From the NCBI GenBank assembly GCA_963835065.1, contig CAWIEK010000046.1:1-64000 (forward strand): a stretch of 64,000 bases of DNA. The letters are read 5' to 3'. Below are positions 23,986-62,398 of this stretch, piece by piece. The position numbers and the translations under genes are program-made. The DNA comes from an uncultured Chthonomonadaceae bacterium (GTDB lineage: Bacteria; Armatimonadota; Chthonomonadetes; Chthonomonadales; Chthonomonadaceae). The notes under the pieces were generated by a model that was given only the letters and a program-made list of their open reading frames with translations, was not told where the DNA came from and searched no databases. Each line of letters begins with the position of its first letter. Position 1 is the first letter of the stretch.

Positions 23986-24242
23986 TGTTTTACCTTTCAG
24001 ATTGATGAAGAACACTGCTTAACTTACGACGATTGGGGCAAAGATTCCTTCTTCTTAACGTACAGCGCGAGGAACGAGCGGCCAGGAGAGGGGTGGGGTA
24101 TTTTCAGAATAGGTGGGTTATCTTCTTATTGTCTTCCCCGGCAAATTGGGATAGGCTTTTGGCCGCATTCACAAAAGTTCTGCGCCAGTCCAATTCGCCT
24201 TTTGTCAGGGCCAGAAAAAAGTCAGAAAAAGAACAAAAGGAT

Positions 24243-24270
24243 GAAACTTTCGCCGCACATACCATGTCTA
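24243..24270 (+). promoter_or_regulatory. Putative ECF-sigma promoter, copy 1
   Basis: GAAACT-N17-GTCTA preceded by an A-rich tract; same architecture as 49245-49273. Confidence 0.55.
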
Positions 24271-24344
24271 TATGTGCAGACATTAGTCTACCAATCAGCC
24301 AGGTGGAGGGATGCTGAGAGTTTAAAATTCCTTTCAACAATCTT

Positions 24345-24508
24345 ACCCGGAAGGGAGGTGCAAGAGTATGCCTGTACACTTCCCACGTTCGCCTTGACGC
24401 TTCGGAGGTCACGACGCCTCTACTTAAAAACTTGACACAAAGAGGCTGAGTGCTGAAAGCGCTGCATTGCCAATATTTCGACGACGCCTCTACATATTTC
24501 TCTTTTTT
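24345..24508 (+). ncRNA. Conserved micro-ORF + RNA element, copy 1 (peptide MPVHFPRSP at 24368-24397)
   Basis: Blockwise identity to 49374-49531; AAGGGAGG RBS; ends in a T-tract. Confidence 0.6.
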
Positions 24509-24606: not shown

Positions 24607-26204
24607 GTGACGAACTCGAAAGTGTGTGTGATCGGGCTGGACTGCGCTGCGCCCGAACTGGTGTTTGACCTGTGGGCTGACCTGCTGCCCAATCTGCGCG
24701 GCCTGATGCAGTCCGGCATGTACGGCCCGCTGGAAAGCACGATTCCCCCCATTACCGTGCCCGCATGGATGTGCATGATGACCGGCAAAGACCCCGGTAC
24801 ATTGGGCATTTACGGCTTCCGCAATCGCCGCGACCATTCGTATGACGGGCTGGCGTTCGCGTCCAGCAAAATGGTGCAGGAGGCTGCGCTGTGGGACGTG
24901 CTGGCCGAACATGGCAAGCGTACTATCGCGCTCGGCGTCCCACTCACCTATCCCCCGCGCCCCATACACGGCCTGCTTGTCACCGATTTCCTTGCCCCCA
25001 ACGTGGAAAGCGATTACACCTACCCGCCGGAACTCAAAGCCGAAATCAAAGCGGTTGTGGGCGAGTACCTGTTCGATACCCGCGAGTTTCGTACCGAAGA
25101 CAAAGCGAAACTGCTGGACGACATTTATACCATGACTTCGCGCCGCTTCCAACTGGCGCAGCATCTGCTGACTACGAAACCCTGGGATTTGTTCATCATG
25201 GTGGAAATGGGGCCGGATCGCATCCATCACGCTTTTTGGAAGTATTTCGATCCCAAGCATCCCGAAATACGTTCCCGGCAACCCCTACGAACACGCCATC
25301 CGCGACTACTACATCGCCCTCGACGCGCAGATAGGCCAACTGCTTTCCCATCTCGACGAAGGCACACGCGATTTTGATTGTGTCCGATCACGGCGCAAAA
25401 CGCATGGACGGCGGCGTGTGCTTCAACGACTGGCTGATACAGGAAGGCTACCTTACCCTCAAAGCCACGCCACAACCCGGCACGAAGTTTGCCCCCGCGC
25501 TCGTAGATTGGACCCGAACCCGCGCCTGGGGCGACGGCGGCTATTACGGGCGCGTGTTCCTGAACGTGCAGGGGCGCGAACCGCAAGGCATCGTGCCACC
25601 CGAAGAAGCAGAAGCGCTCAAACTGGAACTAACCGCCAAATTAGAGGCTATGCCCGACGAACACGGCAGCCCCTTGAATAACCGCGTGTTCCGCCCCGAA
25701 ACCCTGTACGCCCACACCCGCAGCGTTCCGCCCGACCTGATTGTGTACTTCGGCGACCTGCACTGGCGCTCCGTCGGCAGCCTGGGCCATCCCAGCATTT
25801 GGACACACGACAACGACACCGGCCCCGACGACGCCAACCACGCGCAGCACGGCATTTTTATCATGGCAGAAGCCAAGGGAGAAGAGACGAAGAGAAGAAA
25901 AGAAGAAGAGAAGACAGGACAGGGAACAGAAGGAACTCAATCGGCAATCGGCAATCAACAATCGGCAATCGCTTCATCCTTCATCCTTCATCCTTCATCC
26001 TTGCCAAATTCCCTCAGCCCTCAACCGGGCTTATCCATCTACGACATTGCGCCGACGGTTCTGAACGCCCTGGGCATTGCGCCGCCGCCAGGTATGGGGC
26101 GCAATGCGATTGGTTCTGCGCCGACTCCGCGCCCCGACAGCGCGTATAGTGAAGAGGAAGAAGCGGAACTGGCGCGGCGGCTGGAAGATTTGGGGTATTT
26201 GTGA
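24607..26204 (+). CDS. Alkaline phosphatase superfamily / type I phosphodiesterase-nucleotide pyrophosphatase, with frameshifts near 25262 and 25367
   Basis: IGLDCA, STIPPITVPAW, DRIHH, VSDHG and NHAQHG motifs; C-terminal RLEDLGYL. Confidence 0.85.
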
Positions 26205-28062: not shown

Positions 28063-28506
28063 TTCAGGAGGTCGGGTGGTCGCTGCGACGAACGCTTGGG
28101 CGGGCTTGCTCGTGTTGGGCGCAGTCGGAGAGGAAAGTCCGGGCTTCACAGGGCGCGATGCCGGATAACGTCCGGGCGGGGCGACCCGACGGAAAGTGCC
28201 ACAGAAAATATACAGCCGGGGAAGGCATTAGATATTAGGCATTAGGCATTAGAAGAATTCGTTTTTCCTAATGCCTAATATCTAATGCCTAATGCCTTCC
28301 CCGGCAACGGTGAAATGGCGCATTAAGAGTGCACCGGCGGCGTGGAGACACGGCGGCCTGGTAAACCCCATCGGAAGCAAGGTCTGACAGCAGGGGATGA
28401 CGCGGCCCGCCGACCCTGCGGGTAGACCGCTGGAGGAGCCGAGAGTAATCGGCTTCGTAGAGAGATGACCACACAAAGACAAAACCCGGCTTACAGACCT
28501 CCTGAA
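28063..28506 (+). ncRNA. rnpB: RNase P RNA (type A) with an extended P12 hairpin
   Basis: GAGGAAAGTCCGGGC, AGTGCCACAGAAA, GGTAAACCCC and ACAAAACCCGGCTTA motifs. P1 pairing TTCAGGAGGTC/GACCTCCTGAA. Extended -10 TGGTAGAAT upstream. Confidence 0.95.
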
Positions 28507-28515
28507 CTAATCTGA

Positions 28516-49244: not shown

Positions 49245-49273
49245 GAACCTTTTGCCCCACACATCCTGTCTAA
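49245..49273 (+). promoter_or_regulatory. Putative ECF-sigma promoter, copy 2
   Basis: GAACCT-N17-GTCTAA preceded by an A-rich tract. Confidence 0.55.
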
Positions 49274-49373: not shown

Positions 49374-49531
49374 ACCCAGAAGGGAGGCGCAAGAAGATGC
49401 CTGTCCACACCCGCCCGCCCTGACGCTGCTGAGGTCACGACGCCTCTCTCCTACAACTTGACACAACGAGACATCGGGCTGGAAGCGCTGCATTGCCAAG
49501 ATTTCGACGATGCCTCTACATACTCTTTTTT
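49374..49531 (+). ncRNA. Conserved micro-ORF + RNA element, copy 2 (peptide MPVHTRPP at 49397-49423)
   Basis: Paralog of 24345-24508. Standalone, because the flanking genes are on the opposite strand. Confidence 0.6.
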
Positions 49532-49578
49532 CTACCTAACCGTTTCCCAACGTTTGCAGGACTTTCCACTGCCAGAGG

Positions 49579-51636
49579 TCAGGCTTCTTGCGGTTGAGAC
49601 GGCGCGCTGTTTTGAATCGCGGACAGCATCACTTCGGCTACGTCAAGAACGGGCGGAGCAGACTCGCCTGCTACTTGCGCAAGACTGTCGCCTACCATCA
49701 CTTTGCAGAACGGGCAGCCTACCGCAACCGTTTTCGCGCCCGTCGCTACAATCTCTTCCGCGCGGTTTTTGCCGGGGCGTTGATTGGCCGGTTCTTCCAT
49801 CCACATCCGCCCGCCGCCCGCGCCGCAGCAGAAGGTTTTGCTTTCCCGCCGTTCCAATTCTACAAGCGGGATTACGGACGCGCCATTGAGAAGTTTGCGC
49901 GGCGCGGCAGTTTCGCCGTTCACGCGCGCCAGAAAGCACGGATCGTGGTATGTTACCGTATCCTCATAGGCTGCGGGCAGTTTCAATTTCCCGGCTTCAA
50001 CCAACGCCTGCAAATACTGCGTGTGGTGCATCACATCGTAATTGCCGCCGAACTGCGGGTACTCGTTTTTAAGTGTGTGGAAGCAATGCGGGCAGGAAGT
50101 GACCACCTGTTTTGCCCCAATGCCGTCTAGCGTGGCGATGTTAGCTTCGGCAAGCTGCTGAAACAAGAACTCGTCGCCCGTCCGCCGCGCCGGGTCGCCG
50201 GTACAGCGCTCTTTCGGGCCAAGTATCGTAAATTTGACGCCCGCCTGCTGCAACAATTGTGCCAAAGCGCGTATTGTTTTCTGCGCCCGCGCATCAAACG
50301 CGCCCGCGCAGCCCACCCACAACAACACTTCGCGCTCGTCCGCAGCCGACGCCGTTTGCACATCAAGATTTTTCGCCCAATCCAAACGCTGCGACGCGGG
50401 CAATCCCCACGGGTTTTCCCTGCTGCCCAACTGCCGCAGCATGGTTGCCGCGCTGCCGGACAAGCGCCCTTCCGCCACCCGGAACCGCCGGATGCCGTCC
50501 AGAATATCCACGTGCCGAATCAGCGCGGGACATTCGCGGACACAGGCGTGGCAATTGGTACAGGCCCACAAGGATTCATCGGAGATTATGTCCGTAGACG
50601 GGCTATTGACAACCGAAACGCCCTCCGCCTGCGCCTGCGCGTCGGCTTCCAGCGCTTGCGGCGACTTTTCGCCCATCATGCGGCGCAAATCCAGCACCAC
50701 TTGCTTCGGATTGAGTTCCTTGCCGACGGCGTTTGCGGGGCATACATCGGTACACCGCCCGCACTCCATGCAGGCATCCAAACTCATCAATTGCCATCTG
50801 TCCATATCGGCAATCGCGCCCAAGCCGATACGCCCGGTTTCCTCCACCTGCGCCATTGCTACGGGTTCCAGTACGCCCATCGGACGCTCCGGCTGAAACG
50901 CGATGCTCAGGGGCGCGACAAACAGATGCAGCCAGCGTCCATACGGCAGCGCGGCAATCACGCCCAAAACAAGCGGCGCGTGAAGCCACCACAGCAGGGC
51001 ATAGTTCGTCGGCGACAACCAATGCAGCGCGTGGTAAGAACGGGCAAACACAGCGCCGACAGGAGAAAAGGCCATATAGGGAGCGCGAGTCGGGTCGGCT
51101 TCCAGTCCCGCGCCTTCCAGCATAAAACCGCTGACAGTTGCGGCCAGCAGCAAGGCCAGAAAAGCGTCGTCCTTCCAAGAGTGGTTCAGGTTGGGAGAAT
51201 GCGGACTGTGCCGCCGAACCAATGCCATCACGGTTCCCACAATCAGCCCCAACCCGAAAACATCCATACTCAACTTGCACAGCAGATAAAACCAGCCCCG
51301 GTACAGCCAGTGTTCGCCAAAAACAAATGCGCCATAGTGTTCAAGGCTGACGATATTCGTGCCGATGAACAATACCAACATGCCAAAAAAGATCAGGGCG
51401 TGAAACCAGCCCGCCACCTTGCGCCGCCGCGTCCGCCGGTGCGCAACCGCTTGGTCAAACAAGGTTCGCAGGCGTCCGGGCCAGTCCTGCATTTTGGGAA
51501 CCGGCTGTCCCTGCCGCCACAAAATCACCCGCCGCAAAACGCCCCACGCGCAAACCGCCAGCGCAATCACCGCCAGCGCGTAAAACGCGATTTGCTGCGC
51601 CCCCGAAATATGAAAAAAGATCGTTCGTGTTGCCAT
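49579..51636 (-). CDS. Membrane Fe-S oxidoreductase (FadF/HdrD-GlpC type)
   Basis: TM domain, two CxxCxxCxxxCP motifs, and CCG domains (YHDPC, CCGAGGG). Confidence 0.9.
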   Translation of the reverse strand: MATRTIFFHISGAQQIAFYALAVIALAVCAWGVLRRVILWRQGQPVPKMQDWPGRLRTLFDQAVAHRRTRRRKVAGWFHALIFFGMLVLFIGTNIVSLEHYGAFVFGEHWLYRGWFYLLCKLSMDVFGLGLIVGTVMALVRRHSPHSPNLNHSWKDDAFLALLLAATVSGFMLEGAGLEADPTRAPYMAFSPVGAVFARSYHALHWLSPTNYALLWWLHAPLVLGVIAALPYGRWLHLFVAPLSIAFQPERPMGVLEPVAMAQVEETGRIGLGAIADMDRWQLMSLDACMECGRCTDVCPANAVGKELNPKQVVLDLRRMMGEKSPQALEADAQAQAEGVSVVNSPSTDIISDESLWACTNCHACVRECPALIRHVDILDGIRRFRVAEGRLSGSAATMLRQLGSRENPWGLPASQRLDWAKNLDVQTASAADEREVLLWVGCAGAFDARAQKTIRALAQLLQQAGVKFTILGPKERCTGDPARRTGDEFLFQQLAEANIATLDGIGAKQVVTSCPHCFHTLKNEYPQFGGNYDVMHHTQYLQALVEAGKLKLPAAYEDTVTYHDPCFLARVNGETAAPRKLLNGASVIPLVELERRESKTFCCGAGGGRMWMEEPANQRPGKNRAEEIVATGAKTVAVGCPFCKVMVGDSLAQVAGESAPPVLDVAEVMLSAIQNSAPSQPQEA

Positions 51637-61185: not shown

Positions 61186-61755
61186 ATGGACCTGGCTAGG
61201 CTGTTTACGGGCGTCCTGCGCAACGACCGCAAGGAATTCGATGGGCTGGTGAATCGGTGTCACCGGCAGGCGTATAACGTCGCCTACCGCATGACCGGCA
61301 ATCACGCCGAAGCCGAAGACCTGACTCAAGAGACTTTTTTGCGCGCGTACCGCTTTTTCGACCGCTACAACCGCGATATGCCGTTTGAAAACTGGCTCTA
61401 CCGGATTATGTCCCGCGTGTTCATTGACGAACTGCGCAAAAAGCCAAAGTTTAAGACCCAGTCTCTCGACCAACCCCTCAATTCCAGTGACAGCGGCAAC
61501 TCCGAAGTGCTGCTGGAAATCCCGGACTTTGAATCCAATCCCGAACACATGCTTCTCACCGACGCGCTGGAAGAACACCTTCAGAACGCGCTCAACACCC
61601 TGCCGCAAGAGTTCCGCATGGCGGTCGTGCTGGCCGATGTGGAGGGATTGTCGTATGAAGAGATTGCGGAAACCATGAATTGTTCGCTTGGAACGGTGCG
61701 TTCGCGGCTGCATCGTGGCCGCAAATTATTGAGGAAACTGGTGGCGGGTAGTTAG
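61186..61755 (+). CDS. ECF RNA polymerase sigma factor (SigE-like)
   Basis: AEDLTQETFLRAYR, FENWLYRI and GLSYEEIAETMNCSLGTVRSRLHRGR. Confidence 0.92.
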   Translation: MDLARLFTGVLRNDRKEFDGLVNRCHRQAYNVAYRMTGNHAEAEDLTQETFLRAYRFFDRYNRDMPFENWLYRIMSRVFIDELRKKPKFKTQSLDQPLNSSDSGNSEVLLEIPDFESNPEHMLLTDALEEHLQNALNTLPQEFRMAVVLADVEGLSYEEIAETMNCSLGTVRSRLHRGRKLLRKLVAGS

Positions 61756-61768
61756 TGGCTAGTTTTTA

Positions 61769-62398
61769 ATGTCGAGGAGTGTAAGCGTGAACTGTCGTAA
61801 AGTATCGCATCTATTGTCGGCGTATATTGACGGCGAATTGCCGGGCGTGGAGCATCGCCAGATACATGAGCATCTGGCCGGATGCGCGGAGTGCGCGCAG
61901 GAGCATCGGGGGCTGGTGCAGATGAAGCGGATGCTGGCAAGCCTGCGCCTGCGCGAACCGTCCGCCGACCTGCCGCAGCGCATTTTGTCGCAGGTGTCGG
62001 CGCAGCCCACATTGCGCGCGCCCTGGCTCGATCAAATCAACCGATGGGTGCAGGTGCAGGGCTTGAAGCCGCAGTCGCTCGCCCTGGCCGCCACTTTCGC
62101 GCTCGGCGGAATCGTGTTCGCCTCCTATACCATTGACCGCATAGATACCAGCGACAAAACGGCTTCCCTTCAAAACTTGCCCCCGGCGCAAATGGCGTGG
62201 CAACAAACCTCGCCCCTGATGCAGCCGACGACCATCATAGATTCCGAAGTCTTGCCCGGAGGCTCCATGCCTAATGGCGGATATTCTAACCTGCCGAGCA
62301 TGAATCAGAGATACGACTCTATTCTTGTGCCCCCGCGCCGTTCACCGACGCAGAACTCTCTTTTTTACGCGCCGCCCATTTACCGCCGCCAGCCGTAA
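61769..62398 (+). CDS. Zinc-finger (ZAS, zf-HC2) anti-sigma factor
   Basis: LLSAYIDGEL...HLAGCAEC, followed by a TM helix. Confidence 0.85.
   Translation: MSRSVSVNCRKVSHLLSAYIDGELPGVEHRQIHEHLAGCAECAQEHRGLVQMKRMLASLRLREPSADLPQRILSQVSAQPTLRAPWLDQINRWVQVQGLKPQSLALAATFALGGIVFASYTIDRIDTSDKTASLQNLPPAQMAWQQTSPLMQPTTIIDSEVLPGGSMPNGGYSNLPSMNQRYDSILVPPRRSPTQNSLFYAPPIYRRQP

Follow-up and report, generated by a model that had tools for sequence, protein, structure and literature searches.

The CreT 'proline-codon toxin' of P. aeruginosa combines a Shine-Dalgarno (SD) sequence, a mini-ORF ending in Pro-Pro-stop and a hairpin; the preprint describes it as bacteriostatic and as an inhibitor of in vitro translation (bioRxiv 10.64898/2026.06.02.729485). 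The same preprint reports that both prolines are needed, that the hairpin distance is dispensable and that the hairpin merely protects the RNA, and it leaves open whether proline-stop RNA toxins exist outside CRISPR loci (bioRxiv 10.64898/2026.06.02.729485). The haloarchaeal CreT is presented as a tRNA-sequestering RNA (PMC8501985). Arrest at RAPP peptides is stated to require an A site occupied by Pro-tRNA (PMC10951233), while Hayes 2002, as cited in PMC7246954, found the strongest termination stalling in E. coli at DP-stop and PP-stop; a lack of RF3 is suggested there as a possible condition for Pro-stop stalling (PMC7246954). As regards mobility, prokaryotic MITEs with promoters or sRNAs are represented by Correia and QMITE1 in a review (PMC10969869), and Ssr9 is described as moved by ISPpu9 (PMC12288879).

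P. aeruginosa CreT is the closest working analogue of an RNA family of which two copies lie in the window, that is, the whole 64,000-nucleotide stretch analysed here. The features of the two copies are the following.

24214..24239, +: copy 1, A-rich tract 5' of the -35 box, from the sequence and an A-rich profile over 150 copies; presumably UP-element-like
24243..24270, +: copy 1, promoter-like site GAAACT-N17-GTCTA (GAAACT 24243-48, GTCTA 24266-70)
24286..24290, +: copy 1, second GTCTA, 20 nt 3' of the -10 box
24353..24358, +: copy 1, SD GGGAGG, from the sequence
24368..24397, +: copy 1, mini-ORF MPVHFPRSP-TGA of 9 codons, from the sequence
24398..24404, +: copy 1, 7-nt spacer from stop to P1, fixed in length and variable in sequence
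24405..24420, +: copy 1, hairpin P1 (GAGGT, 6-nt loop, GCCTC), from pairing in a 43-sequence alignment
24442..24496, +: copy 1, P2 domain, outer stem GAGGC 24442-46 with GCCTC 24486-90
24458-72, +: copy 1, near-invariant 15-mer AGCGCTGCATTGCCA inside the P2 outer stem, from invariant alignment columns
24497..24508, +: copy 1, T-rich tail, from the copy profile; not a canonical intrinsic terminator
from ~49203, +: copy 2, A-rich tract 5' of the promoter-like site, from the sequence
49245..49272, +: copy 2, promoter-like site GAACCT-N17-GTCTA (GAACCT 49245-50, GTCTA 49268-72)
49382-87, +: copy 2, SD GGGAGG, from the sequence
49397-49423, +: copy 2, mini-ORF MPVHTRPP-TGA of 8 codons, from the sequence
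49431..49522, +: copy 2, RNA domain (P1 49431-46, P2 stem 49468-72 with 49512-16, core 49484-98)
49532..49587, +: copy 2, tail remnant, compared by eye with the tails of other copies

The first-pass annotation had listed a series of blocks shared by these two loci, and every one of them was found in the sequence. In an alignment of 167 nt the copies are 79.6% identical (blastn search of the 8.0-Mb genome, E 3e-35), a similarity well outside chance, and both carry ~100 conserved bases after the ORF, ending in CTACATA and a T-tract; the whole unit measures ~260 nt. No terminator-like site was found in the window between 24100 and 24700. The tail remnant of copy 2 corresponds to a segment that elsewhere leads to an ISAzo13-type right inverted repeat; in copy 2 it ends early, overlapping the stop codon of a convergent gene (49579-51636).

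The loci had been taken for a paralogous pair. Both copies are real; rather than forming a pair, they are two of 162 copies in the 8.0-Mb source genome (G000), where nhmmer with a profile of the two window cores returned 169 matches, of which the 162 with E<1e-5 were kept and a clean gap precedes the remaining seven. A covariance model was built from 43 sequences (13 from G001, 25 from G002 and 5 from G000) and gave 122.8 bits for copy 2. It matched 47 sites in G002 and 13 in G001, two genomes of the same genus; one G002 match is weak (34 bits), leaving 46 loci for analysis. The completeness of the assemblies is 92% for G000, 97% for G001 and 80% for G002. The same model found no match in the 65 other genomes of the order (67 searched including G001 and G002), and 58 of 60 relatives were without a blastn match. 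The 150 genomes of the phylum gave merely four weak matches in three genomes (E 0.02-0.04, ~21 bits), two sequence patterns found nothing in JGI metagenome contigs, and among viral 15-mer matches, 80 of 120 of which were scored with the covariance model, the best reached 18 bits, compared with 77-131 for true copies. The family is thus genus-restricted. Rfam 15 (T-box, tmRNA, SRP, 6S and tRNA included) contains no family that matches either copy with a gathering score, and neither the two copies nor six loci of relatives gave anything credible even with a relaxed E-value, in line with the earlier statement that no Rfam family could be recognised. Literature searches found no paper on the family; further CreT variants could stand in bioRxiv supplements. 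The family is real and undescribed, and the self-contained unit proposed earlier, with promoter, SD, micro-ORF and conserved RNA, has all of its parts across the copies.

Nearly all G000 copies (158 of 162) sit between predicted genes, as called with a codon model. In 100 of 161 copies the downstream neighbour gene has the opposite orientation, and therefore the unit is not a cis leader. Among the 26 ORFs flanking the G001 copies there was no common neighbour family, no cas gene and no recombinase or nuclease gene of the kind that accompanies an IS110 bridge RNA or a TnpB-IscB omega RNA, and the core has no variable guide. Relatives of the copies, covering the SD-to-3' region, occur on soil RNA-library contigs in seven of seven RNA runs examined (8 contigs, 151-400 nt); these runs were picked for holding the sequence, the contigs give neither strand nor ends, several extend at least 90 nt beyond the core, and DNA of a multicopy element may have been carried over. 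Eleven runs with small shares (0.00-0.18) were available, of which eight were examined, seven recorded as RNA and one of unspecified kind.

Like P. aeruginosa CreT, the family has an SD, a mini-ORF with Pro before the stop and a downstream hairpin, and the 13 G001 copies all end Pro-Pro-stop. Unlike CreT, which is present once, it comprises 13-162 dispersed copies; most G000 and G002 copies end Arg-Ser-Pro-stop; and the hairpin distance is fixed at 7 nt and followed by an extra domain of ~60 nt with an invariant 15-mer. A search for cas1 gave nothing in G001 and G002, assemblies that are 97% and 80% complete, and 48 candidate spacers of G000 (four arrays from a simple finder) had no match above 15 nt among those listed. 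Since neither cas1 nor a CreA link was found, the family is not a CreTA member. With the haloarchaeal CreT, which acts as an RNA (PMC8501985), it shares a strong initiation signal, a mini-ORF and a stem-loop; it differs in having no conserved rare-codon pair, in using any of four codons for the last Pro and in having no CRISPR linkage. As in RAPP/RxPP peptides of the ApdA, ApdP and SecM type, R/H-x-P stands where the P site would be, whereas here R-x-P is followed by a stop instead of Pro (or Gly), the peptide is 8-16 aa long and cis regulation of a downstream gene is absent. In type I toxin-antitoxin systems, a hydrophobic peptide of ~18 aa or more goes together with a conserved antisense RNA; the peptides of this family are short and mostly polar, and the downstream profile contains no conserved opposite-strand promoter. 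By analogy, the family would work like the CreT-type mini-ORF RNAs; it travels like a MITE, and as a whole it belongs to neither group.

The initiation signal of the mini-ORF is predicted to be exceptionally strong, with a median SD duplex of -12.9 kcal/mol in 159 copies versus -3.9 in 3010 genes, of which 0.1% match that strength. The SD is mostly paired by prediction (median 0.97, 159 copies), with an inconsistent partner: its own ORF region in 72 copies, the P1 arm in 42 and the P2 arm in 26, of 159. Such predicted pairing could lower ribosome loading, which would count against the ribosome trapping proposed below. A first scoring of the ORF covered 157 of the 162 G000 copies (four lacked the anchor and one the SD) and found an x-Pro-stop ending with 8-11 codons in 152; an in-frame start is present in 155 of the 162. 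The wider scoring took in 217 copies: the 162 of G000, the 13 of G001 and 42 of the 46 G002 loci, four being missed by the hairpin pattern. The RBS-ATG-stop frame, which homologs had been expected to preserve, is indeed widely kept, with an in-frame start in 209 of the 217 and Pro before the stop in 215. G001 and G002 copies also start with GTG, TTG or CTG, and their peptides reach 16 aa; across the family the peptides have 8-16 aa and are mostly polar. Codon use extends to each of the four Pro codons, each of the four CGN Arg codons and the three stops TGA, TAA and TAG, and in the last Pro codon positions 1-2 are fixed while the third varies. Selenocysteine read-through was ruled out by this variation of the stop; a selenocysteine tRNA predicted at G000:C1:196596-196693 is unrelated to it.

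The G000 peptides end in RSP, RPP, RAP, HPP or LPP, with Ser-Pro-stop in 119 and Pro-Pro-stop in 38 of the 162 copies; Pro-Pro-stop also closes 8 of 42 G002 copies, most others being SP-stop. In the G001 copy L099, an in-frame TGA after codon 3 would give Met-Pro-Pro-stop, a minimal CreT-like frame. Ordinary genes of the genome avoid the five endings of the G000 copies: they occur in none of 4286 predicted genes against 8.3 expected, PP-stop occurs in 4 against 17.6 (p 2e-4), and internal RxPP in 155 against 362. SP-stop alone is not depleted in these genes (20 vs 23.9 expected), nor is RxP-stop as a class (23 vs 27.5). A ribosome stall at R/H/L-x-P-stop is plausible from these sequence patterns. 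The peptide end had been compared to RAPP-type arrest, which in the strict sense does not apply, the stop codon and not Pro occupying the A-site position; because RAPP needs an A-site Pro-tRNA, the motif of the family is of the termination type. No RF3 was found above the cut-off in four of four genomes. It is missing as well in G005, a genome that does not have the element, which counts against the trapping proposal.

Downstream of the ORF, the distance from stop to P1 equals 7 nt in 144 of 157 scored G000 copies, while the sequence of this spacer varies (positional entropy up to 1.8 bits in G002). By ribosome geometry, a ribosome whose A site holds the stop would have P1, at 7 nt, at its mRNA entrance. 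In the 43 sequences, 98.6% of P1 cells are paired, with a change from A-U to U-A in five, and two-sided changes affect four of the eight P2 pairs. Both stems together are 90.9% paired with 26 two-sided changes, a number reached by none of 500 shuffles, and slid-register controls give 40-59% paired, although kinship among the copies inflates these tests; pairs with a two-sided change number 5 versus 3.4 in shuffles (40/500), subject to the same inflation. Of the assumed pairs, the one at columns 70-106 does not form in 32 of the 43 sequences; the folds of single copies are no more stable than those of shuffled sequences (z 0.12 and 0.89); and a mutual-information scan of 195 sequences was left unused as subfamily structure dominated it. 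The GCCTC(T) motifs, which the first-pass annotation read as conserved anti-SD seeds, are the 3' arms of the P1 and P2 stems; G001 reads GCCAC/GCCGA and TTCTC in their place, with matching changes in the partner strands, and the anti-SD argument is thereby removed.

Inside P2 lies the 15-mer AGCGCTGYATTGCCA, with 14 columns invariant in all 43 sequences, and the core contains the palindrome AGCGCT. No antisense match of the 15-mer to the rRNA operon or RNase P RNA was found, and complementary 8-mers are not enriched at start codons (104 vs 94-116 of 5013). Thirteen of its 15 positions are the same in tRNA-Gly(GCC), from D-stem to anticodon loop; this profile match was equalled by 2 of 150 shuffled tRNA sets and 22 of 2000 random 15-mers. 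The likeness is a lead, not a result, being post hoc with p about 0.01. Pairwise alignment of whole copies gives p 0.02-0.43 with differing best matches, and no anticodon stem forms in the core of the 43-sequence alignment. A resemblance to tmRNA pk1 was not significant (p 0.05-0.35), and a coding core was ruled out by in-frame TGA variants in the sole frame where the C/T change is silent.

Upstream, 153 of the 162 G000 copies carry two boxes, GAACCT, GAACCC or GAAACC with YGTCTAA at a spacing of 16-18. We take AAC...GTC boxes to mark ECF sigma promoters, and label the promoter-like site of the copies ECF-type on this assumption. The boxes are near-invariant, with a spacer ~70% identical between them. 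Of 181 strict matches genome-wide, 140 fall within copies and 24 more are intergenic elsewhere, some before ordinary genes. A second GTCTA follows 16-20 nt 3' in 140 of 153 G000 and 8 of 8 G001 copies with the ECF-like promoter. In 12 of 46 G002 loci, 5 of 13 G001 copies and no G000 copy, the same ORF-RNA module follows another two-box motif (CTTCTAAA...GTTAATA or CAACATATAG), and at the syntenic locus L062 that motif is found in G002 where G000 has the ECF-like one. With these two promoter types on one module, the module keeps a promoter-like signal and not one particular signal. No cognate sigma factor emerged from the 57 sigma genes, the best upstream site scoring 14.4 bits against a median of 22.9 in the copies. 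The window itself holds a sigma-70 region 2 gene, after which a zf-HC2 protein is encoded (61186-62398, +), likely an ECF/anti-sigma pair; this sigma gene is absent from the best-scoring promoters. One copy (G000:C46 107818-107961) has on one side a gene labelled rpoD-like on the basis of sequence and position, and on the other a convergent gene for a 208-aa sigma factor (G000:C46:106443-108691).

Two unrelated MITE shells have carried the unit. The insertion sequences that share their inverted repeats are the following.

C41:162051-163415, G000: ISAzo13-family IS, shared 30-bp inverted repeats
C53:451922-453286, G000: ISAzo13-family IS, shared 30-bp inverted repeats
L262:610-1880, G002: ISAs1-family IS, inverted repeats equal to those of shell B, flanking 10 bases differing
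L263:1382-2624, G002: ISAs1-family IS, inverted repeats equal to those of shell B, flanking 10 bases differing

Shell A is defined by the 30-bp inverted repeats common to the two ISAzo13-family elements (1365 bp each) and to ~28 MITEs (82-112 bp), small elements found genome-wide and mostly flanked by TAA or TTA duplications. In G000 its right end lies just 3' of 37 of 162 copies, its left end 5' of 11, and both ends at 6, two of which show a 3-bp TAA/TAA duplication. Shell B has 22-bp inverted repeats, and all 11 such pairs in G000 enclose a copy (453-476 bp, with one of 653 bp); the 10-bp target duplications are perfect in five, 9/10 in two and 2-7/10 in the other four. The repeat also bounds the ISAs1-family (PF13808) elements of G002. 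No ISAs1-family transposase was found in G000 (92% complete), and G001, where the copy number is lowest at 13, yielded neither an ISAs1 nor an ISAzo13 transposase. Some shell end can be recognised at 70 of the 162 G000 copies; in G002, 12 of 46 loci show shell B, and the 13 G001 copies show no shell; 92 of the G000 copies have no end at all and are still intact. TIRs shared with an autonomous IS together with a target-site duplication, as expected of a MITE, are found at a subset of copies only. The leader of copy 1 is of the shell B type and the tail of copy 2 of the shell A type, and neither keeps a TIR pair. An IS end had been named as what would overturn the earlier reading: at least 70 of 162 copies are MITE cargo, and the unit itself is not an IS end. 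Like Correia, QMITE1 and Ssr9, the element is non-autonomous, has TIRs and target duplications, is moved by an IS transposase and has a transcription unit aboard. Unlike them, one cargo was captured by two unrelated IS families, it is shell-less in G001, its ORF is codon-selected, and it is better conserved than its TIRs.

When G002 loci are compared with G000, shared and empty sites both occur, and shared syntenic copies resemble the type of their own genome, which points to conversion or replacement. Most copies at L053-L098 of G002 stand at gene-order breaks relative to G000, with both flanks co-linear within 6 kb at 14 of 46. At the clearest empty sites (G002 L083 and L066 against G000; the G000 paralog C49:644870-644955) the intergenic DNA has been replaced, and a duplication is absent. 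Non-conserved DNA lies on the upstream side more often than on the downstream side (20 vs 3 discordant loci among 46; p 5e-4, hand count), an excess that fits one-ended capture with upstream cargo. An idea of circular permutation or minicircles was dropped, as the MITE ends account for the flank overlap, and retro-mobility is unlikely given that the upstream promoter travels with the unit and that each genome has only 1-2 RT genes.

The vehicle decays faster than the cargo. Among 35 copies with an ISAzo13-type end, pairwise identity is 0.68 for the TIR, 0.75 for the tail and 0.70 for the promoter spacer, compared with 0.92 for P1 and 0.97 for P2; in 10 copies with the ISAs1 shell the TIRs reach 0.83-0.87 and P1/P2 0.95-0.96. 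Furthermore, shell-less copies have promoter boxes and frame intact. The earlier suggestion of selection is borne out in that the boxes are kept while their spacer drifts and the Pro-stop frame survives synonymous change, while gene conversion explains part of the uniformity of the core.

The copies of G000 are also spaced more evenly than random placement allows: the gaps have a CV of 0.74 versus 0.95, and only 4 are below 10 kb against 22 expected, neither value being reached in 500 placements. Close pairs are depleted in both orientations (direct 4 vs 16, inverted 6 vs 16), and a control repeat is clustered. In G002 the CV is ordinary (0.95 vs 0.92) with the shortest gaps missing (0 vs 3.4, p 0.02, at a threshold chosen afterwards). 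Behind this avoidance within 10-15 kb there may be a positional role or else selection against recombination at short range. No replication-strand bias was seen among 66 informative copies (35 vs 31).

We propose, with a probability of roughly 0.45, that the unit is a stress-induced, dose-dependent ribosome-trapping RNA, its transcription, stalling and toxicity being putative. An alternative sigma factor would transcribe all copies under stress, and the very strong SD would recruit ribosomes; these would pause at the point where peptidyl-tRNA-Pro fills the P site and the A site faces the stop codon. The 7-nt spacer would set P1 at the mRNA entry channel of the paused ribosome, and the 3' domain would stabilise the complex or recruit a factor. 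The RNA would act by titration, so that every added copy would raise the dose, and this effect would be the reason why intact copies persist after the transposon ends have decayed. Its action would resemble that of the CreT proline-codon RNA toxin, with sigma-factor control in place of CRISPR-CreA. Frame and codon selection, the avoided endings, the lack of an RF3 above the cut-off, the strong SD, the fixed spacer, neighbour genes that speak against a cis leader, a core outlasting its vehicle, a second promoter type on the same module and, by analogy, the CreT precedent all argue for trapping. Against it, CreT requires both prolines, while 119 of 162 G000 copies end Ser-Pro-stop, and a simple ribosome sink needs neither an invariant 15-mer nor a fixed 7-nt spacer. 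The undepleted SP-stop and RxP-stop endings, the ordinary folding of single copies, the failure to find a cognate sigma gene and the share of gene conversion in the core's uniformity also count against it. A bolder version is possible but doubtful: a sigma-induced RNA from up to 160 evenly spread copies would park the ribosome at proline-stop and dock a tRNA-Gly-like domain at a fixed distance, producing hibernation or dormancy by gene dosage, amplified via two unrelated transposons. If the proposed action is true, hosts can employ proline-stop RNA toxins as regulated stress tools away from CRISPR loci, and a bacterium can, through transposon capture, multiply a functional RNA gene beyond 100 copies and thereby raise its dose. 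The 217 natural variants already indicate the important bases.

The main rival to the ribosome trap, which we regard as rather unlikely, places the effect in the 3' domain. The stalled ribosome would only shield or position it by blocking 5'-3' decay by RNase J, an enzyme found in four of four genomes, and a stable ~100-nt RNA would bind a protein or RNA through its 15-mer, possibly as a partial mimic of tRNA-Gly(GCC). That P2 is the most conserved part (0.97), that the leader tolerates large length differences and inserted DNA, and that 13 of 15 positions match the tRNA are all consistent with this, whereas the post hoc tRNA likeness (p about 0.01), the missing anticodon stem and the whole-copy alignments (p 0.02-0.43) weaken it, as does the lack of antisense matches to the rRNA operon or RNase P RNA and of 8-mer enrichment at start codons. 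The dual-function sRNA of the first-pass annotation, in which GCCTCT motifs pair with the SD of their own or other mRNAs, draws on the predicted pairing of the G000 SD, where a stem arm is the best partner in 68 of 159 copies. Since the motifs covary with stem partners in cis, lie within stems and not in exposed loops, and lose their anti-SD character in G001, we regard it as very improbable; the first-pass interpretation as a whole, which includes the self-contained unit under selection, is partly supported.

Two further readings concern the spread of the copies. The unit could be selfish cargo, a passenger or addiction-like MITE module whose uniformity stems from recent transposition and gene conversion with little benefit to the host. 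This agrees with the 11 of 11 ISAs1-type TIR pairs that enclose a copy in G000 (five duplications perfect, two at 9/10), with the match of these TIRs to ISAs1-family ends in G002, with ISAzo13-type right ends 3' of 37 of 162 copies, with syntenic copies resembling their own genome's type, and with the fewest copies, 13, in G001, where neither transposase was found. We consider it improbable, however, in view of the fastest decay at the transposon ends, the 92 of 162 copies that are end-less yet intact, the 13 G001 copies with no detectable shell and the lack of a visible antitoxin; conversion, moreover, cannot account for drifting spacers and third codon positions next to boxes and first and second positions that are held. 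A positional role, as a regularly spaced DNA site or a transcription-ribosome anchor organising the chromosome, would account for the over-dispersion of the G000 copies (gap CV and short gaps as given above), the depletion of close pairs in both orientations beside a clustered control repeat, and the palindrome AGCGCT. With 13 to 162 copies within one genus, an ordinary spacing CV in G002 and no strand bias, such a role appears highly unlikely, and selection against recombination between near repeats yields the same pattern.

Several minor observations concern the copies and their surroundings. Many leaders are filled with heptamer tandem repeats; the leader of the copy at G000:C19:86582 has ~200 bp of inserted DNA, another repeat included, and at G000:C54:109077 promoter and leader are present with ORF and core lost. 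A separate REP-like repeat (the GACGCTTG.ACTTTCCTGCCGGG hairpin family, 106 matches in G000) is often near copies and is clustered, not evenly spread. In the window, Rfam 15 gave a gathering score for RNase P alone, a bacterial class A RNA at 28064-28509 (+, 275 bits). Directly 5' of copy 1, the segment 18953-24015 (-) encodes a type ISP restriction-modification gene, a DUF4276 gene and an AAA_21 ATPase, a defence-island-like block in line with accessory DNA 5' of copies. Finally, the phosphodiesterase (PF01663) gene 3' of copy 1 (24607-26204, +) consists of two overlapping frames split at ~25374, either by a frameshift or by an assembly error.
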